Virus record (IMG/VR): IMGVR_UViG_3300025101_000019
Coordinates: 96,001-160,000 of that record
Source of the DNA: a virus
DNA: 64,000 nt
Reading direction: 5' to 3' (one strand)
The notes beneath the pieces are model-generated. The model did not search any database. It was not told the origin of the DNA and saw nothing but the letters and a program-made list of their open reading frames with translations. Positions within the stretch are counted from its first letter, which is position 1. Each line of letters starts with the position of its first letter. A program made the translations under genes and the position numbers. Of this stretch, positions 32,975 to 41,872 are shown one piece after another.

Positions 32975-33385
32975 TTACTTAGCCCACTTCTTTCTTTGGA
33001 CTATCTGAGAGATAATTCCGTATACACTCAAGTCTTCGTAAGTGTCTTGGATATTCTCACCGACCTCATCAGGTTGCCCTAATACAACCAATTGCTTTAG
33101 TCTTTGGATTTTATCGTTTTTTCTAAACCATAACCCAACTAATGATAGTTTGATATCTTCGTCTGATTCTAAATTAGTTCCAACCGATATATTACCTGGC
33201 CCATAGTTTCTTTGTTTTTTACAAAATGTTTCATACATTTCATCTAAAATCTTTTGGAACTCTGATGTAGTTTCTGGGTATAATCTTTCACAATATTCTA
33301 CTGCGTTTTCTTCTACATTTCTTTTTTCAGTTCTCTCACCCTTCCACTCTACTTTATTTTTTCTGTCTTTTATTACTTTAGCCAT
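32975..33385 (-). CDS. nucleotide modification associated domain 1 (DUF1599/Nmad1-like)
   Basis: KKQRNYG, RKNDKIQRL, ENIQDTYEDLSVYGII. Confidence 0.7.
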   Translation of the reverse strand: MAKVIKDRKNKVEWKGERTEKRNVEENAVEYCERLYPETTSEFQKILDEMYETFCKKQRNYGPGNISVGTNLESDEDIKLSLVGLWFRKNDKIQRLKQLVVLGQPDEVGENIQDTYEDLSVYGIISQIVQRKKWAK

Positions 33386-33816
33386 TTTTTTATTTCTTTT
33401 TTATCTAACCCATATTTTAACAATATTTCAGTAATATCGTCTTTACTAAGTATTTCAAGATAGTCTCTGACTTCTCTTTGTGATACTGAGTAGTACTTTG
33501 CAAGATACTCCAACACATTGGAATTATACTTGTCATCTTTTTTACCTTTTATGTATTTGTCAAAAGACCTTTTCTTTGGTAAAAAATCAAGATACATTTT
33601 ATAAACATCTCTTGGACTGAGTTGACCAATAGTAAACTTTTGTAGCTCGTTAACCAACTCCAATAATCCCATATTCATAGACAAAAACCTATTGACCATA
33701 AATGGTTCAAAGGTTTTTTTATCCATAACTGAAAGACTATCCCAAGAAGTTTTTGACTCCTTAAGTCCAGATAGATGTTGAAATAATGTCTTAGCCTTCT
33801 TGGTTGTCGCCATCAA
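33373..33816 (-). CDS. clamp loader small subunit (gp62-like)
   Basis: FEPFMVNRFLS, LAKYYSVS..E...YL; near the large subunit. Confidence 0.7.
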   Translation of the reverse strand: MMATTKKAKTLFQHLSGLKESKTSWDSLSVMDKKTFEPFMVNRFLSMNMGLLELVNELQKFTIGQLSPRDVYKMYLDFLPKKRSFDKYIKGKKDDKYNSNVLEYLAKYYSVSQREVRDYLEILSKDDITEILLKYGLDKKEIKKWLK

Positions 33817-34081
33817 TTAGTTCTTTCGGTGTAAATTTAGGATGAACAGTTCCACAATTGTTACACAATACAACAGGTATTGGTAACATTGATGCTACAC
33901 CATTTGGTGATTGTACTGCTGGTACTTCTTTATACATTGTTACTTCGTCAAAAAATATCCCACCACACTCAGGACAACTTACTGTCTCTAATTTTCTTGG
34001 GTCAAGTTTTAATTGAGGTTGTTGTTGTGGGTTTTGTTGACCACCCAAGTTAACAACTTTACCTTTTCCTTTTTTTGCCAT
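33791..34081 (-). CDS. zinc-ribbon protein
   Basis: CPECGG...CNNCG. Confidence 0.7.
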   Translation of the reverse strand: MAKKGKGKVVNLGGQQNPQQQPQLKLDPRKLETVSCPECGGIFFDEVTMYKEVPAVQSPNGVASMLPIPVVLCNNCGTVHPKFTPKELIDGDNQEG

Positions 34082-34084
34082 AAT

Positions 34085-35005
34085 TTATTTTCCTAATGTC
34101 ATTAAAATAGTTAATACCATAGCCATCACATTGATTTCTTTATCAACTACCATGGAGTCTTTGTACTGACCCTCGGCTATATTTAAAATAGTGTGTCCGA
34201 CTTTACCATTTGCATATGAATCTACTTCATCATAAAGTGCTCTATACAATGGTGTAAAGTCTTTCACTTTTGAATCTGCAATAATTTGTCTGATTGTGTT
34301 GAACTTTGTTTTCATTTCACCACTCTCTTGTAAAACTTTTATTACATCTTCAGTATAGTTCGCCTGAATTGTAGAGGTTGTATCTATTTGTAATTCACCT
34401 TTGACAACTTGTCTTTGTGCTGAATTTAGAACTCTACGAATGTCAGGATAACCACTATTGACCAAAATTGCCAAGTCTTCTTTTTCAAACTTAACTGATT
34501 CCTCGTTTAGTATATCAAACAATCTTTTTGCCACTTCTTTTTTAGAAGGTGGTGTTATTGCGAATGTTTGACAACGAGATTGAATCGGGTCAATAATTTT
34601 CTCTACATAGTTACAAGTTAAAATGAACCTTGTAGATTTACTAAAAGTTTCCATAAGATTACGAAGTGCTGCCTGTGCATTTGGTGTCAAATAATCAGCT
34701 TCGTCTAATATGATAACTTTCCACTTTCTGAAACCCATTGATGATGCGAATCCACGAATCTTGTCACGAACTGCGTCAACTGAGTTTTCATCAGAAGCGT
34801 TAATATACATCAAATCACAATCAATCTGATTTGTGATTATCTTTGCGAGGGTAGTCTTACCAGTTCCTGCAACTCCATAGAGTAACAAGTGAGGTACATC
34901 CTCATTTTCAATGTATATTTTTACTTTGTCTAATATATGTTGATTACCAACATATCCATCTAATGTATCGGGTCTGTATTTTTCAACCCATAGTGAATTG
35001 CTCAT
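34085..35005 (-). CDS. clamp loader large subunit (gp44/RFC-like)
   Basis: LWVEKYRP, GVAGTGKTT, LDEAD, IQSRC. Confidence 0.95.
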   Translation of the reverse strand: MSNSLWVEKYRPDTLDGYVGNQHILDKVKIYIENEDVPHLLLYGVAGTGKTTLAKIITNQIDCDLMYINASDENSVDAVRDKIRGFASSMGFRKWKVIILDEADYLTPNAQAALRNLMETFSKSTRFILTCNYVEKIIDPIQSRCQTFAITPPSKKEVAKRLFDILNEESVKFEKEDLAILVNSGYPDIRRVLNSAQRQVVKGELQIDTTSTIQANYTEDVIKVLQESGEMKTKFNTIRQIIADSKVKDFTPLYRALYDEVDSYANGKVGHTILNIAEGQYKDSMVVDKEINVMAMVLTILMTLGK

Positions 35006-36192
35006 CTACCTACTTCTTTTAAATATGTTTCTTTTGCGTTTTCCCAAGTCATTCCAATAATATCCATGTAATACAATGTATCTGGTTTCAACCTATTCTC
35101 ATCATGTAACTTAGTGTATCTTCTAATAGCTTTCTTCTTCCACCATCTGATTGTGTAATCATCACCTTCTTCGAACTTCTTTTTCATCTTCAACTGACTT
35201 TCATCAATCTCGTTTCTTAGAAACTCATTACCATTATCATACATCATTGCGAAGTATACACCTCGTTTAAATCCATGTTGATATTGTGTACTTTTGATTC
35301 CCAACTCTTTGAAAATCATAGACAATATTCTTTGTTTGATACCAGATACAGGTCCTTGGATACCTTCCTTTTGGGTTGTAACTCTTTTGTATTCATCAGC
35401 ATTATGTTCTTTCATCCATTGATGCCAGATATCGTAAAATTGATTATCAGGTTTAGTAGAAACTTTACCTGTCGATTCACCTAATGTTTTGAAATGTGGT
35501 ATTCCATTATATTGTGAATGGATTCCATAAAGAGAAGTTGTACCAACTGCGATTAGAGTTTGTCCATACTTTTCTTTCCACAAATCTCTGAATGTAGGTG
35601 AAGTGGTCAATGCCGAAACAAGTTTACCACCTAAGAAGTTATATCCCAAAGGTTGTGTTGCGATGATAGATGTACCAATTGTAGTATGATTCAACTTACC
35701 ATCTTTAAACTTGTTTTCTTTATCCCACCCAATGTATTTATCACGAACACCTAAAGATGTTACATCAGAACCAAGTGATATTACACCAAGTACTTTACCA
35801 CTTTTTCGGTCTTTAGCAAATGCTTTTATATTACGACCTGGATTAGCAGTAAACTCCATTGATGAAATACACTTTCGGATGTCAGTCCACTTTGCAGTCC
35901 CTGCAGAATCTACGATTAAGTCTACATAAGGTTCTAACTCTTCAATTTCTTTAATAGTCTGTTCCTTGTTGTAGATGTCAGTTGGAGTCCAAATCATATC
36001 ATAAGACTTTGCAAGACTTGGTTTTCTTGCCATAGACTTAGGTAGGTCTGAGTTCCACTCCTGCCACTTTTTATAAAGAGTTTGTTCCTCAACTGGCATA
36101 CTTGATAGGTATTCCATATTGTCGATGAATCGTTTTCTCTCTACATCATAGTCAAAGACTGGTGCCGCTGGTTCTGTGTCCCAAAATTGCAT
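35002..36192 (-). CDS. DUF4338 (DruA-like domain) protein
   Basis: RDKYIGW, QPLGYNFLGGKL, TTSLYG..SQYN, LGESTG. Confidence 0.7.
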   Translation of the reverse strand: MQFWDTEPAAPVFDYDVERKRFIDNMEYLSSMPVEEQTLYKKWQEWNSDLPKSMARKPSLAKSYDMIWTPTDIYNKEQTIKEIEELEPYVDLIVDSAGTAKWTDIRKCISSMEFTANPGRNIKAFAKDRKSGKVLGVISLGSDVTSLGVRDKYIGWDKENKFKDGKLNHTTIGTSIIATQPLGYNFLGGKLVSALTTSPTFRDLWKEKYGQTLIAVGTTSLYGIHSQYNGIPHFKTLGESTGKVSTKPDNQFYDIWHQWMKEHNADEYKRVTTQKEGIQGPVSGIKQRILSMIFKELGIKSTQYQHGFKRGVYFAMMYDNGNEFLRNEIDESQLKMKKKFEEGDDYTIRWWKKKAIRRYTKLHDENRLKPDTLYYMDIIGMTWENAKETYLKEVGR

Positions 36193-36887
36193 TACTTAAT
36201 CTCCACTAAATAATAGTTAGACTTAAATCCATCATTTTCAAATGAAACATGAGCTAATCCATTTGGTGAAATCTTCAATGAAGATGATTTTGCACCCTTG
36301 TTAGCATTAAGGATTTCCTTTAAGTACTTAGCTGAGAATGATATTGGTTCTACATCACCATCACACTCACATTCTACATTGATTGAGATTCTGTTAGAGT
36401 TAATCTTTGAATAACCTAAGATTACTTCACCTTTGTTACTTTTACAACTAAATGTAAATGTATCTGAATCAGATAATGCACCTTTAGACTTTACGAATTT
36501 GTTTACGAAGTCATTGTCCATTTTGATAGTAGATGTAAAATCAGGTAATTGTTTCAAATCTGGAACAACAGGTATTACAGAAAGGTCAGCCAACATATAG
36601 TTTACTGAAGTACCTTTATCTGAGAACACAAGTGCTGCGTCACCTTCTTTTACACTAATATCTGAATCTAATACAGATAATAGTCCTTTTAATTGAGATG
36701 TAGTGTAAACACCATACTCTCCATTTGGAAAGTCTTTGTTATCACTACTTACATTTCCTAATAGGGTCTTATCATCAGAAATGAATTTTACTGACAACCC
36801 TGCATCTGTTGAATCAATCTTTACTGATTCTACCTCACCACCCAAATTATATCGAGTAATGAACCCTTCAAACGAGCTTTTTTTCAT
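36192..36887 (-). CDS. DNA sliding clamp (gp45/PCNA-like)
   Basis: About 230 aa, FSAKYLKEIL, YYLV end; lies between loader and polymerase. Confidence 0.75.
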   Translation of the reverse strand: MKKSSFEGFITRYNLGGEVESVKIDSTDAGLSVKFISDDKTLLGNVSSDNKDFPNGEYGVYTTSQLKGLLSVLDSDISVKEGDAALVFSDKGTSVNYMLADLSVIPVVPDLKQLPDFTSTIKMDNDFVNKFVKSKGALSDSDTFTFSCKSNKGEVILGYSKINSNRISINVECECDGDVEPISFSAKYLKEILNANKGAKSSSLKISPNGLAHVSFENDGFKSNYYLVEIK

Positions 36888-36919: not shown

Positions 36920-36951
36920 CTAATATACGAAATTTATTTTTAAAATCCAAA
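36920..36951 (-). promoter_or_regulatory. Bacteroidota-type promoter for the clamp/loader genes
   Basis: TTTGG-N19-TATATTAG. Confidence 0.7.
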
Positions 36952-37554
36952 CCATTTTAACATTTTTAATCGTCTTTTTTTGAAATGGTATATATAAATG
37001 TTTTTTGGTTTGGTCTTTTCATACTTTGCTTTACCATTTTCAAGTGCTTTTCTAATCTCTAACGCAAATGGTTTAAACTTACCATTATGTTTAGTTCTAA
37101 TCGTTTTATCGTGATATCTAAATCCATTATACATAATAACACGACCTGGTTGAGTTTCACCTTTAAATTCAAAGTTTGTAGCTTTGTAAACCACACCCTC
37201 GTGTCCAAATGATTTATCTGCATATGATATAATCATATCTAAATCGGTGTTTCTCTGTAACCATCTAAGAGTCGAACCTATAAAGTAAGACTCTGTATTT
37301 TTAGGTGTATCATCTACACAAACTAATCTTTTTAATTCTAATATTTTATCAGGATTATTTGTATACTTTTGTTCTACTCCACCCATTCCAATCTTACCAT
37401 ATACAATTGCCCCAATCATATTGTTACCATCCATTAACTTAAAACAATATGAAGTTTTTAATCCATTCATATTTTTAGAGTAATGGTATTTTTCAATAAA
37501 ATCAACTACTTGACTTCTTGGACACTTTTCAACTATGTAATTTGTTACACTCAT
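36940..37554 (-). CDS. Mom-like GNAT DNA-modification protein (paralogue 1)
   Basis: YHYS, GAIVYG, LELKRL, TESYFIG, ISYAD..GHEGVVYKATNF. Confidence 0.8.
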   Translation of the reverse strand: MSVTNYIVEKCPRSQVVDFIEKYHYSKNMNGLKTSYCFKLMDGNNMIGAIVYGKIGMGGVEQKYTNNPDKILELKRLVCVDDTPKNTESYFIGSTLRWLQRNTDLDMIISYADKSFGHEGVVYKATNFEFKGETQPGRVIMYNGFRYHDKTIRTKHNGKFKPFALEIRKALENGKAKYEKTKPKNIYIYHFKKRRLKMLKWFGF

Positions 37555-40070
37555 TAAAATCCAAAAAATTCTGAAGCTTTATTTAGATTTGGATTTGGTT
37601 TCTCCCAATCCATAGCTTTATAGAAGTCATCAAGTTTATTTTCTAACTCCTTTTCCCAAATTTTATCGTAGTCAATATATTGTTCTACAAGATTTAAAAT
37701 CTGAGGTGGGTCATTGTGACCTTTTAGTCCTGTCGTATCTAATCCGAGAGGATTCTTTTTCAAATATACCCACTTAATCTTATCACCATCTTTCATTGGT
37801 TCGTACTTGTATGGTACTTTATAGAAAGCAAGTAATTGATTATATGTTATTGCTGCCTTAACATGCGCAGGTGACCCCTTTTGGAATTCACCTAATACTT
37901 GTGTCTTTGTTGTATACTTACTCATACCTTTGACCGCTGAGTTCTTTGCGATATCAATGAATGGTCGGTCTTCCATACCTTTTTTGTAATCAAGAATCTT
38001 AGTATCAATCTCCTTTTTATCAACCGACCTTAGAATATCTAACAAAACAGTCTTCATAACTTCCTTAAAATATGTTGGGAATGAACTTCTTTTTACATCC
38101 AATCCTTTCACATCTAACTTATCACAATCAACTTCATTATCATTGATAATCCATTGTGCGTATCTTTTCTTTGATACCCAAAACCCACCCTTTGCAATCG
38201 TTTCTTGTTTAATATCAAATTTATGTGTATCGATGTTAAATAACTTTTTTGCCATCGTATCATAAACTTTGTTGATATGACCTTCGACTTCTTTTGCTGC
38301 GGATATAATCGCAGGAATCATTTCTTCATCCGACTCTTCATTAAGTTGTGGATTCCTAGCTTTTACTAACGGCGCTGCTTGATAAAAAACAGAATCAGTA
38401 TCGGTATAAACATTGTAGTCATCTTCTTTTCCTATTACTTTTGAATAATATTGATTTGCAATCAACTCAGTTGTTTTAATTACAGTTTGACCTGTAATTG
38501 TAGTTGCTTCTGCGTTATCCACATCGTAGAATCTGAATGATGGTAATCCCAACACCCCATACAATGAGTTTAACATAATCTTTTGTACTAATTGTCGTTT
38601 ACCATAAAACTTGTATTGTTCGTCATTACCTTCTTTACCATACTTTTTCATCAAGTCTTTGTATTCAACTCGTTTGTCAAACCAAACACTTAGTATTTCA
38701 GGTATAACTCCAACTTTATCTGTTCTATATAAAACACCATTTGCAGCAACAGAGTATCTATTCTTTTCAATAAACTTTAGAAATTTATCTTTAGGTAGTG
38801 GTGGAAACTCATTACCCTCATCATCCAAAATAGAGTAAGTATCAATCTTACCTCTCATATGGTCTTCTGCTACATAATTCTTAAGTTTACCAATCTTAGT
38901 TTCAGGTGAGATATTGATACTCATAATGATTGATGGATATAGTGATGTTAAATCCAAATCATAAACCCATTTGTAAAGACCAGGTTTTGGTTCTTTTACA
39001 TATGCGCCTGTAAACTTCCCTTCACCATCAGACCCATCTGCGTTTCGTTTCTTTCTCCATGGTTTATTGGGTGCTACCCTACCACTCCTTCTAAGGAATG
39101 TAAGAATAGCTCCCTCTAACCATTTAGATGAAAACAGAAAGTCTTCGTAGAACACATGACCTGTATGACATATTGCCCTTGCTAAGTCAATGAATTGTAA
39201 TTTCTTATCCAAGTCAACTACCAACTCAACATCAACTAAGTTATACTCAATAAACTTTTCAATATCATCTCTGAATAGTTGGTCTAAGTTTCCTTCATAC
39301 TCAATCTTACCTCGACCTAACTCAATTGTTGCAACAGTATCTAATCGATAGTTGGGTAGTTCTGTAAAGTTATAACACTTATATAAAGCGAGATAATCTA
39401 ATGCAGATACTCCTGCAATAATATATCTGTTTCTGTACTTGTTGTATGATACTTTACCAATTGGTGATAATTGATTTGCATATTGTTGACCGAATAGTAG
39501 TTTATATCTATTGTAAAGATATGTAACATCAAAGAAATCAATATTCCACCCCGTTACAATAGTTGGATTTATCTCTCTCCACTTGGACATAAACGCTGAT
39601 AATAATCCCTCTTCAGTATCAAATGATTCTACCTTTGCACCTTTGATTGTTTTATCAATCTTTTCACCTTTGTTAACTACATAGACAAAATAGTCATTTG
39701 TAATTGAGTCATGTGCTGCGATTGAAGTAATTGCGTTACTTGCAGTTTCAATATCAGGCAACCCACTATTCATTTCAACCTCAATATCAAATGTTAGAAT
39801 TGTATGTCCTGTTGATAGTTCGTCTGAATCACCATACTCATCAATTAGAAACCTCGTCATTTCATTAACATCAGACTCATATAATTTTAAGTCATCATCT
39901 TGTTTCCAATAATTTAATTTCTTAAGTCGTTCACCATGAATGGATTGATGTGCTCCATTACCATCTCTTACATAGGCGTACCTACGATACTTAGATGTAA
40001 AGTAACCTTTTTCATCATCCCAACAATGGATGATAGACTTTTCTTTTTCGAAGAATACATTTTGATACAT
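37554..40070 (-). CDS. DNA polymerase family B (gp43-like)
   Basis: FDIE, GWNIDFFD, YNLVD exonuclease motifs; DLTSLYPS, KIMLNSLYG, YTDTDS. Confidence 0.97.
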   Translation of the reverse strand: MYQNVFFEKEKSIIHCWDDEKGYFTSKYRRYAYVRDGNGAHQSIHGERLKKLNYWKQDDDLKLYESDVNEMTRFLIDEYGDSDELSTGHTILTFDIEVEMNSGLPDIETASNAITSIAAHDSITNDYFVYVVNKGEKIDKTIKGAKVESFDTEEGLLSAFMSKWREINPTIVTGWNIDFFDVTYLYNRYKLLFGQQYANQLSPIGKVSYNKYRNRYIIAGVSALDYLALYKCYNFTELPNYRLDTVATIELGRGKIEYEGNLDQLFRDDIEKFIEYNLVDVELVVDLDKKLQFIDLARAICHTGHVFYEDFLFSSKWLEGAILTFLRRSGRVAPNKPWRKKRNADGSDGEGKFTGAYVKEPKPGLYKWVYDLDLTSLYPSIIMSINISPETKIGKLKNYVAEDHMRGKIDTYSILDDEGNEFPPLPKDKFLKFIEKNRYSVAANGVLYRTDKVGVIPEILSVWFDKRVEYKDLMKKYGKEGNDEQYKFYGKRQLVQKIMLNSLYGVLGLPSFRFYDVDNAEATTITGQTVIKTTELIANQYYSKVIGKEDDYNVYTDTDSVFYQAAPLVKARNPQLNEESDEEMIPAIISAAKEVEGHINKVYDTMAKKLFNIDTHKFDIKQETIAKGGFWVSKKRYAQWIINDNEVDCDKLDVKGLDVKRSSFPTYFKEVMKTVLLDILRSVDKKEIDTKILDYKKGMEDRPFIDIAKNSAVKGMSKYTTKTQVLGEFQKGSPAHVKAAITYNQLLAFYKVPYKYEPMKDGDKIKWVYLKKNPLGLDTTGLKGHNDPPQILNLVEQYIDYDKIWEKELENKLDDFYKAMDWEKPNPNLNKASEFFGF

Positions 40071-40074
40071 ATGT

Positions 40075-40106
40075 TAAATATACGAAATTATTTTGACTTT
40101 ACCAAA
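40075..40106 (-). promoter_or_regulatory. Bacteroidota-type promoter abutting the polB start
   Basis: TTTGG-N19-TATATTTA, 4 nt before ATG. Confidence 0.7.
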
Positions 40107-40887
40107 AGTTAACTGCGTTTTCTGGCGTATAAGTTTCATGTTTTTCAATAGGTGGTAAAAACTCCTCAGGGTCTTTTGGATACGGACTTGTTTTATGTTT
40201 TAACATCTTACTAAGTTTTCGTTTCTCAGATTTGTTTTGACCTAAGATTTGAATGTACCTATGTTTAGGTGCTTCTTTCTTTCGCCAAAAACATGATTTG
40301 TTTTGTTTACCTATTTCTGTTTTTAAGTGTTCTACATTATGTGAACCCCATTTTGAGAATACAGTTCTCGAATGAATCCAATTGTAAGGATTTTCAGTTA
40401 GTGATACTGAATAGTTTGGCATTAGTTGTATATCACGACAATCTTGATATAACCAATTAGTTGCTTGGTAAATGCCACCGAGGTGTAATTGTTCAGGGTC
40501 TGCGTAACTCAATAACATCTTAATATTTGGTGCATTTTCTCTCATCCATTTAAAAGACTGACCCATTGAGTATGATTCTACATTTGAACCATATCCATCG
40601 TGTATAAACAATCTTGTCAATTCTAAACACTCATCTTTTTCTAAACCATCAATTACAGACTTAATCGCTGAACGACCTACGGGATATCCATATACCAAAC
40701 AACCAATTAGTTTTTCACTACCAAAAAACTCACCATCACCTTTGTAATACACACCAAGTGCGTATCTACACATTGTCCATGCGTGAGAGTAGTGATACTT
40801 CACTATCATATGTTTTGCAACACTTTTATTGATTTCTCTGATTGAAACCTTTGAGGCGTCTACATAATGTTTATTAGGTTCTTTCAA
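40099..40887 (-). CDS. Mom-like GNAT DNA-modification protein (paralogue 2)
   Basis: YHYS, LELTRL, VESYSMG, LSYADP..HLGGIYQATNW. Confidence 0.8.
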   Translation of the reverse strand: MKEPNKHYVDASKVSIREINKSVAKHMIVKYHYSHAWTMCRYALGVYYKGDGEFFGSEKLIGCLVYGYPVGRSAIKSVIDGLEKDECLELTRLFIHDGYGSNVESYSMGQSFKWMRENAPNIKMLLSYADPEQLHLGGIYQATNWLYQDCRDIQLMPNYSVSLTENPYNWIHSRTVFSKWGSHNVEHLKTEIGKQNKSCFWRKKEAPKHRYIQILGQNKSEKRKLSKMLKHKTSPYPKDPEEFLPPIEKHETYTPENAVNFW

Positions 40888-41626
40888 TTGGTTCTAATTT
40901 TTTTATTTCTTCTTCAAATAACTCACCCTGTTTAGGATATGGTAGTGAAGGATATTTTAAACTCTTTAATATACGACTTTTTTTTGACTTATCCAAAATA
41001 TAAATGTATCGATGCTTTCTTGGTTCTTTTTTAATCCAAAAAGTTTTACCAATTACCTTTTGTATTTTGGTGGGGTTATTAGTTCCATAATATGGAAATA
41101 TTGTTCTACCATGTTGCCACTCCCCATTTTCTTCAAACTTAAATAACCAACTATCATTTGGTCTTATTCTATTTCCTTGGTATACCCAATTAGTTGACTG
41201 ATATACAGTTCCTAAATGACCTGCTTTGGGGTCTGAGTATGAAATTAATCCTTTGATGTGTTTTGCGTAGGTTCTTAACCACTTAAATGTTTGACCTACA
41301 AACCAACTTTCAATGTTACATCCGTATCCATCAAATACAAATAATCTTGTAAGTTCTAATACTTCTTTTCTATCCAATAACTCTGATATTGATTGCCCAG
41401 AGTGTCTTCCGATTGGGTCACCATATGTTGCAACACCGATTAACTTATCTGTCGATGAAAAGAAAGAGTGTGAGTTATCCTCAATATACAATCCCAAACA
41501 ATAACTAACCTTTGTCCATATACCACTATAATGGTTTTTTATGATAATGTCCTTTGCTACTGATTTTGAGATAGGTCTTACGGATAACTTTGAAATATCT
41601 GTATACTCTTTCCCTTTAATTTTCAT
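40874..41626 (-). CDS. Mom-like GNAT DNA-modification protein (paralogue 3)
   Basis: NHYS, LELTRL, IESWFVG, ISYSDP..GHLGTVYQSTNWVYQG. Confidence 0.8.
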   Translation of the reverse strand: MKIKGKEYTDISKLSVRPISKSVAKDIIIKNHYSGIWTKVSYCLGLYIEDNSHSFFSSTDKLIGVATYGDPIGRHSGQSISELLDRKEVLELTRLFVFDGYGCNIESWFVGQTFKWLRTYAKHIKGLISYSDPKAGHLGTVYQSTNWVYQGNRIRPNDSWLFKFEENGEWQHGRTIFPYYGTNNPTKIQKVIGKTFWIKKEPRKHRYIYILDKSKKSRILKSLKYPSLPYPKQGELFEEEIKKLEPIERT

Positions 41627-41826
41627 TGATACTCGTTAAACTCACCAAATAGTAAGTGTTTCCAAGTTTCACCTCTAACAATTTTTCTTATGTTAGCAGG
41701 TGATACTCCATTGTTTCTTGCCAATACTCTAATATTACGATGACCCACTTGCCATAATTTACGAATAGACCTTACTTGTCTTTCCGTTAATTTATGTTGT
41801 GGATGTAATTCACCTCTTAATGCCAT
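41623..41826 (-). CDS. stand-alone HTH protein resembling the C-terminal DNA-binding domain of HNH endonucleases
   Basis: GELHPQHKLTERQVRSIR..LARNNGVSPANIRKIVRGETWKHL; ATG at 41826. Confidence 0.7.
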   Translation of the reverse strand: MALRGELHPQHKLTERQVRSIRKLWQVGHRNIRVLARNNGVSPANIRKIVRGETWKHLLFGEFNEYQ

Positions 41827-41840
41827 TCTAAATCTTTTCA

Positions 41841-41872
41841 CTAATATACGAAATTTATTTTAATTTTCCAAA
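41841..41872 (-). promoter_or_regulatory. Bacteroidota-type promoter for the HTH-Mom-Mom unit
   Basis: TTTGG-N19-TATATTAG. Confidence 0.7.

Follow-up and report, generated by a model that had tools for sequence, protein, structure and literature searches.

Probable tethering of Mom-family DNA modification enzymes to a phage sliding clamp through C-terminal aromatic tails

The IMG/VR record IMGVR_UViG_3300025101_000019 describes a 173-kb virus of 33% G+C that is about 95% complete (CheckV) and carries nearly all of its genes on the minus strand. We analysed a stretch of 64,000 nucleotides of this record, referred to below as the window, which holds the T4-like replication module of a marine phage with Bacteroidota-type promoters and in which three genes for Mom-family GNAT proteins, here termed Mom1, Mom2 and Mom3, lie next to those for a family B DNA polymerase (PolB) and a gp45-like sliding clamp. 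Our analysis suggests that Mom1 and Mom2 are probably tethered to the phage clamp by short C-terminal tails that carry a pair of aromatic residues, a conclusion drawn from comparative sequence data and from a computed complex of the clamp with the Mom2 tail. A broader proposal, for which we consider the chances to be even, concerns a large group of marine T4-like phages whose promoters are of the Bacteroidota type. In these phages a gp45-type clamp would be the common dock of Mom-type GNATs, of several N6/N4 and Dam-type methyltransferases and probably also of a resolvase; each would use one portable tail interchangeable with that of the polymerase, so that DNA hypermodification would be physically coupled to the replication fork. 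The genes and tails on which the argument is built are the following.

36192-36887, minus strand: gp45-like sliding clamp, 231 residues, the proposed docking platform (phrog_223 processivity factor, E 3e-8)
36940-37554, minus strand: Mom1, Mom-family GNAT protein, 204 residues (PF25680, E 3e-34)
36943-36981, minus strand: C-terminal tail of Mom1, KKRRLKMLKWFGF, residues 192-204, resembling a PCNA-interacting protein (PIP) motif, [ILM]-x-x-W-F, conserved in close orthologues and of low predicted local distance difference test (pLDDT) score
37554-40070, minus strand: PolB, gp43-like family B DNA polymerase, 838 residues (PF00136 and PF03104; phrog_262, E 5e-189)
37557-37580, minus strand: C-terminal tail of PolB, KASEFFGF, a presumed clamp-binding epitope that aligns with the T4 gp43 end KASLDFLFG
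40099-40887, minus strand: Mom2, Mom-family GNAT protein, 262 residues (PF25680, E 3e-47)
40102-40173, minus strand: C-terminal extension of Mom2 past the point at which Mu Mom ends (PYPK), 24 residues (239-262), ending NFW
40102-40131, minus strand: free tail of Mom2, the last ~10 residues, coil
40874-41626, minus strand: Mom3, Mom-family GNAT protein, 250 residues (PF25680, E 8e-45)

The Mom paralogues and their C-terminal tails

With Pfam bit scores of 118.8 for Mom1, 161.4 for Mom2 and 153.4 for Mom3 against a cut-off of 27.1, all three proteins belong to PF25680. When the AlphaFold2 (AF2) model of Mom2 (pLDDT 89) was compared with the PDB, the best match was Mom of phage Mu (8bv8; E 1e-13, TM-score 0.66-0.70), followed by other GNATs, and the model places helices at residues 173-193, where Mu Mom has its Mom-specific helical insertion. 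Mu Mom is a dimer that post-replicatively transfers glycine from Gly-tRNA(Gly) onto N6 of adenine in double-stranded DNA, and residues H58, Y59, R111, S124, D149, R151 and Y159 are important for its function (PMC13219725). Six of these seven residues align with H32, Y33, R92, S105, D130 and Y140 of Mom2, which are invariant or nearly so among its homologues, while the place of Mu R151 is taken by E132. Mom1 and Mom2 are probably post-replicative DNA adenine modifiers of the Mu Mom type. No tRNA genes were found within the window.

Both proteins continue beyond the conserved domain into a tail that ends in, or close to, two aromatic residues. Mom1 ends LKWFGF, and [ILM]-x-x-W-F followed by G, N, K, V or GF was present in 73/73 close orthologues; among the distant homologues, all of which stop about 13 residues earlier, the WF tail was found in 0/47. 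The Mom2 end is more widely kept: 119 of 120 homologues, down to 58% identity, have an aromatic pair there, nearly always as [NKS]-[FY]-W at the carboxyl end, and the sequence of the linker ahead of the terminal [FY]W varies freely. An invariant end behind a variable linker is the signature expected of a short linear docking motif, and we consider the Mom2 end a candidate for one. In the AF2 model of Mom1 (mean pLDDT 86) confidence falls from 59 to 44 along the tail, as in unstructured segments, and in that of Mom2 residues 239-251 are packed on the domain and the last ~10 are coil, with pLDDT falling from 73 to 43. Since the domains are confidently predicted and the tails are low-confidence coil, the tails look free in both models.

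PolB carries a tail of the same kind at the position of the T4 gp43 clamp epitope. In relatives this polymerase ends FFGF, FFSF, FFNF, FFAF, FFDFG or ERFF, and in the more distant relatives of 217-301 kb the ends KFFAF, EFFSF and KFFDFG were found. The Mom1 end WFGF resembles the PolB end FFGF. The resemblance extends to the DNA, as the last 12 nucleotides of Mom1 (36940-36951) and of PolB (37554-37565), stop codon included, are identical (TTTGGATTTTAA); the final F of Mom1, which makes its end match the GF of PolB, is unique to the window copy among the 73 orthologues. Some relatives have a split polymerase, encoded either as two overlapping frames (L055:7113-9787) or, in contigs of 248-301 kb, as N- and C-terminal halves set apart by homing-endonuclease-like or other genes (L068:14686-20132; L070:14259-17850), and the FF tail is retained on the C-terminal half.

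We then considered how often such ends arise by chance. Across the 173-kb genome, 9 of 207 minus-strand open reading frames have [FW][FW] within their last 8 residues, compared with 4.4 expected from composition, and three of these nine are the neighbours Mom1, PolB and Mom2. The chance that at least two of the three Mom paralogues would have a [FW][FW] end is 0.001-0.006. A first-pass annotation of the window, made from its letters, had put forward that the Mom paralogues share the C-terminal peptide of the polymerase and, through it and an internal FF loop, ride the clamp. The strings on which it relied (PolB KASEFFGF, Mom1 LKWFGF, Mom2 GDGEFFGS at residues 52-59 and Mom3 SHSFFSS at residues 52-58) are all present; the idea of a shared C-terminal peptide holds for Mom1 and also for Mom2, whose NFW end had been missed, and fails for Mom3.

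The tails do not match the canonical PIP box Q-x-x-[LIM]-x-x-[FY]-[FY]. Mom1 has R, K or S in place of Q, with [ILM] at position 4 and WF at positions 7-8 in 73/73 orthologues and a basic run ahead of the motif, and in the Mom2 tail PIP position 4 is variable. By this comparison we class the Mom tails as PIP-like rather than as canonical PIP motifs.

The same tail on unrelated enzymes and its predicted dock

The tail also occurs on other enzymes of related phages, as seen in two related loci (L057 and L058; PolB about 57% identical). Here, rows of three to four methyltransferases (N6/N4 and D12) and Mom genes flank PolB (L057:338-8135 and L058:8953-14977), with Mom1 located upstream of PolB and not adjoining the clamp gene. 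The tail is present on 11/11 polymerase and DNA-modification genes and on 1/17 others (Fisher p = 5.6e-7, the two loci being related and hence not fully independent). The ends are HEFF or HDFF, NFFDYEK and KFW on three N6/N4 methyltransferases, LEFFEYKQK on a D12 Dam-type methyltransferase, WFN or WFK on Mom1, KFFDI on Mom2 and KFFSF or KFFNF on PolB. Moreover, an aromatic-pair end was present in 116 of 120 homologues of one of these methyltransferases, a family of the N6/N4 type whose ends switch between KFW (as in Mom2), KFF, KFFSF or KFFNF (as in PolB) and FFG (as in Mom1); the KFFSF and KFFNF tails are the very ones that PolB bears in these phages. Because the ends interchange within a single family, the tail variants look equivalent. 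As a control, an aromatic-pair end was seen in 1 of 150 clamp homologues. The 217-301-kb relatives display the same pattern, with Mom2 ending KFW, SFW or NFW, a methyltransferase ending EFFG and a GHKL ATPase ending KFFNF. We regard this portability across folds as the strongest comparative argument that the tails are docking elements.

A further possible clamp client is an endonuclease I-type Holliday-junction resolvase (PF05367, E 1e-54) encoded elsewhere in the genome (C1:45577-46011, locus L063), outside the window. It bears a 9-residue extension ending SQNFFAFSK and is the fourth of the nine open reading frames with a [FW][FW] end.

The identity of the clamp itself became apparent with a profile of 132 homologues, which among PDB sequences matched the RB69 and T4 gp45 clamps only (1b77, E 1.7e-4; 1czd; 6drt). 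The clamp had no Pfam match, and a single-sequence phmmer search against the PDB returned only noise, so that the profile was needed. The first-pass annotation had suggested modelling the clamp trimer with the peptides; we ran this with Mom2 residues 225-262, using our own alignments and three controls. The predicted complex had an ipSAE of 0.61 (runs 0.63, 0.61 and 0.59), compared with 0.02 for the best control and 0.00 for a control in which the clamp was replaced, a pass that may partly reflect likeness to solved structures, among which clamp-peptide complexes are plentiful. The mark for ipSAE was calibrated on 80 solved complexes, of which 58 reached it, and on 110 mismatched pairs, of which 2 did, and the present job, with a trimer and our own alignments, departs from that calibration. 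At least 42% of contacts agreed between runs, with a partner pLDDT of at least 46. The confident contacts are made by Mom2 residues 253-262, with the lowest error for F261 and W262, and they touch a single clamp subunit, on its interdomain connector (residues 109-115) and C-terminus (226-231) as well as at residues 36-43 and 209-211. The model supports placement of F261 and W262 in the canonical clamp pocket. It covers one of the three tails, that of Mom2, which, like the two reservations on its score, counts against reading it as proof of clamp binding by both Mom proteins.

Several further observations also weigh against tethering to the clamp. The 73 Mom1 orthologues amount to only about six distinct tail variants. 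Mom3 has no aromatic C-terminus, ending EPIERT here and PIERG or PIERIK in its orthologues, and the DruA-like protein encoded beside the clamp gene has no aromatic tail either, ending EVGR. In a sister clade (L022, L027, L031 and L046) PolB ends ERFF, yet the Mom genes end KWEN or KKLDLYT. The hydrophobic and acidic composition of T4-type epitopes (SLDFLFG, SLDFLYEAND) is missing from the Mom tails, which have K, N, S or Q ahead of the motif and no acidic residue in it, and the FW of Mom2 is not identical to the FFGF of PolB. Finally, both tails in the window overlap the TTTG box of a promoter, a point treated in the next section.

These considerations leave some room for a tail that is functional and docks elsewhere, be it on the polymerase, another replisome protein, a gp32-type single-stranded DNA-binding protein or the host beta clamp, or that acts as a degradation or localisation signal. 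Conservation and portability demonstrate a shared partner or function without naming it, the acidic residues that mark the clamp epitope of T4 are missing from the tails, and our modelling covered one candidate partner, the clamp. We nevertheless consider a different dock rather unlikely, because PolB itself carries the motif at a position homologous to the clamp epitope of T4 gp43 (KAS...), because the Mom2 tail was modelled in the canonical clamp pocket while the clamp-replaced control scored 0.00, and because every carrier of the tail is an enzyme that acts on DNA and whose gene lies around that of the clamp. Of the tethering proposed by the first-pass annotation, the part that concerns the C-terminal tails is supported computationally, by conservation, predicted disorder and the Mom2 complex model, and the parts that concern the internal FF loop and Mom3 are not.

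A search of the whole genome with T4 gp55 as the query returned no match to a gp55-like late sigma factor, a result that is uninformative either way.

Promoter overlap, the internal FF loop and the surrounding genes

The ends of Mom1 and Mom2 also overlap promoters of the downstream genes. The clamp-gene promoter and the internal loops of Mom2 and Mom3 are located as follows:

36920-36951, minus strand: clamp-gene promoter of Bacteroidota type, consisting of a -33 box TTTG (36948-36951), a 20-nucleotide spacer and a -7 box TATATTAG (36920-36927)
40711-40740, minus strand: internal FF loop of Mom2, residues 50-59, KGDGEFFGSE, an insertion in a hairpin
41447-41482, minus strand: internal FF loop of Mom3, residues 49-60, EDNSHSFFSSTD, aligned with the Mom2 loop

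The first-pass annotation had cautioned that the Mom1 tail overlaps a promoter box, and it does: the -33 TTTG of the clamp promoter falls within the F-G codons of Mom1, 20 nucleotides upstream of TATATTAG. Likewise, a TTTG within the F-W codons of Mom2 lies 20 nucleotides upstream of TATATTTA ahead of PolB. The arrangement of TTTG, 19-20 nucleotides and TAnnTT[TA]G, often within TTCGTATATTAGTA, occurs in the window at 36920-36951 and 40060-40107 and downstream of Mom1 or Mom2 in L001, L054, L058, L059 and L061. These Bacteroidota-type promoters point to a host among the Bacteroidota, possibly in the Flavobacteriia, and NCBI lists one homologue of Mom2 (P0216) under the label 'Polaribacter phage'.

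The terminal WF(G) and FW could on these grounds be by-products of a constraint on DNA, with the codons TGG-TTT-GG and TTT-TGG being kept for the -33 TTTG box that they hold; in favour of this stands the 20-nucleotide distance from the -7 boxes at both ends in the window. In L057 and L058, however, Mom1 is directly followed by an overlapping gene without a promoter, and WF is kept as TGG-TTC-AAC or TGG-TTT-AAA, without TTTG. FW likewise persists in L054, L059 and L061, where the promoter that follows Mom2 has a TTTG of its own, located further downstream. In addition, FW is near-invariant across 120 homologues of many contexts and unrelated methyltransferases share the same tail. On the evidence of non-overlapping loci and synonymous codons we rejected the explanation that the tails result from promoter overlap, and we hold it to be extremely improbable. 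Since the aromatic pair is kept where no promoter overlaps it, the constraint acts on the protein.

A second element that had been linked to the clamp is the internal FF loop. Alignment bore out the claim that the Mom2 and Mom3 loops share an insertion with no counterpart in Mom1: compared with Mom1 and with Mu Mom (8bv8), a beta hairpin is longer by 8-10 residues. Several properties would suit a clamp-binding element, as the insertion is lineage-specific, the loop is exposed-looking coil of moderate confidence in the Mom2 model (pLDDT ~69), and FF is retained by the orthologues of Mom3 and by Mom2-like genes in L022, L027, L046 and L050. The expectation that FF would be conserved in homologues failed for Mom2. 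Among its 120 homologues the commonest loops are DVLGN, NALGD, NTFGD and SQFGD, and FF is mostly replaced by VL, AL, TF, QF or AF; what is conserved is hydrophobic-[FL]-G-[DN] and not an aromatic pair, a consensus that looks like a structural turn. We rejected the loop as a clamp motif on this lack of conservation, and a role for it in clamp binding is very unlikely. The complex model is silent on the loop because the modelled segment, residues 225-262, excludes it.

The remaining genes of the module are, with Mom1, Mom2, Mom3, PolB and the clamp as listed above:

41623-41841, minus strand: helix-turn-helix (HTH) protein, the gene adjoining Mom3
35002-36192, minus strand: DruA-like protein (PF14236), between the clamp and the clamp loader
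34085-35005, minus strand: large clamp-loader subunit
33791-34081, minus strand: Zn-ribbon protein, 96 residues, between the two clamp-loader genes
33373-33816, minus strand: small clamp-loader subunit

Along the minus strand the order is HTH, Mom3, Mom2, PolB, Mom1, clamp, DruA-like, large clamp-loader subunit, Zn-ribbon and small clamp-loader subunit. The start codon of Mom2 is a TTG that lies within the last part of Mom3, so that the two genes overlap by 14 nucleotides (40874-40887). The order Mom3-Mom2 with an overlap was also found in L054, L059, L061 and L069, which suggests translational coupling. The DruA-like protein, whose family (PF14236) is that of the Druantia defence system, is kept at or near the same spot in L001, L054, L059, L061, L069 and L070, always with the end EVGR. 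The idea that it is a hidden fourth Mom found no support, hhalign giving a probability of 1.9% against the Mom profile. Relatives of the Zn-ribbon protein end in a hydrophobic pair and an acidic run (PREFFENDEKK, PKEFFEGGEEK and PKELFEDVSTEEK), which recalls the T4 gp55 epitope SLDFLYEAND, and the copy in the window ends PKELIDGDNQEG. A nucleotide search of phages found no close cultured relative, and among cultured phages Microcystis phage Mel-JY01 has the polymerase nearest to PolB of the window (48% identity).

Proposed mechanism and relation to known systems

We propose that Mom1 and Mom2 each acquired a short unstructured C-terminal peptide with an aromatic pair, in the form [ILM]-x-x-W-F-G(-F) in Mom1 and of a variable linker followed by [NKS]-F-W in Mom2. 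The tail would most likely enter a hydrophobic pocket that lies between the two domains of the gp45-like clamp, beneath the interdomain connector and beside the clamp C-terminus. Clamps would be loaded at phage forks and left on the new duplex, where docked Mom1 and Mom2 would be concentrated on fresh phage DNA, scan it in one dimension and modify it as it emerges. As Mu Mom acts post-replicatively on double-stranded DNA, the substrate of these enzymes would be the same DNA that carries loaded clamps. The tool-belt would be shared with the polymerase and, in relatives, with methyltransferases. Such tethering may bring faster protection, processivity and less modification of host DNA. Given that Mu Mom forms dimers and that the Mom3 gene overlaps that of Mom2 (in the window and in L069), one might speculate that Mom3 rides as the partner of Mom2, the two sharing a single tether.

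If this proposal is true, it would explain how nascent phage DNA is protected from restriction within seconds of its synthesis, why modifier genes are interleaved with those for the polymerase, clamp and clamp loader, and by what means an adenine modifier that could be toxic is directed to the DNA of the phage. The search for replisome-coupled modification enzymes in metagenomes would gain a simple, testable tag, namely a terminal [FWY][FW] preceded by a variable linker, and the aromatic tag could serve to render modification enzymes processive in vitro.

Clamp tool-belts are textbook knowledge for polymerases, ligases, repair enzymes and T4 late transcription. In our literature search, no report turned up of a phage Mom, methyltransferase or other DNA-hypermodification enzyme that is tethered to the clamp of the phage. 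A functional counterpart is DNMT1, the eukaryotic maintenance methyltransferase, which is recruited to newly replicated DNA by a PIP box that binds PCNA. As in that system, the modifier here would ride on a clamp through a peptide, and the Mom1 tail has the PIP-like core of a hydrophobic residue, two variable positions and two aromatic residues. The differences are that the clamp is of the gp45 type, that there is no Q at position 1, that the peptide is C-terminal and not N-terminal or internal, and that the chemistry is probably aminoacyl-tRNA-dependent adenine modification instead of cytosine methylation.

With Mu Mom (8bv8; PMC13219725, PMC7261163), the enzymes described here share the family PF25680 and the fold, together with counterparts of H58, Y59, R111, S124, D149 and Y159, though not of R151. 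Mu Mom ends at PYPK without an aromatic tail and is encoded by a single late gene, in contrast to the three paralogues within a replication module seen here, two of which are tailed. Phage thymine dioxygenases that depend on ParB have a C-terminal extension limited to the partner-dependent enzymes, and no stable complex was trapped for them (PMC13229309). They resemble the arrangement proposed here in that a phage DNA modifier relies on a DNA-clamp-type partner, although their partner is a ParB-like protein of the CTPase fold and not the replicative clamp.

The closest known system is the epitope set of T4, in which gp43, gp55 and gp33 carry interchangeable C-terminal gp45-binding epitopes on divergent linkers (PMC2988020). 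Epitopes of this set bind a hydrophobic pocket on the C-face of the clamp, and the peptide of the RB69 polymerase has been seen there (PDB 1b8h). As in these T4-family proteins, the polymerase and unrelated putative clients have in common a short peptide, hydrophobic or aromatic, at the very C-terminus. Unlike in T4, the clients here would be base modifiers rather than transcription factors, and their epitope would be an aromatic pair after K, N or S in place of the hydrophobic-acidic sequence exemplified by SLDFLYEAND.

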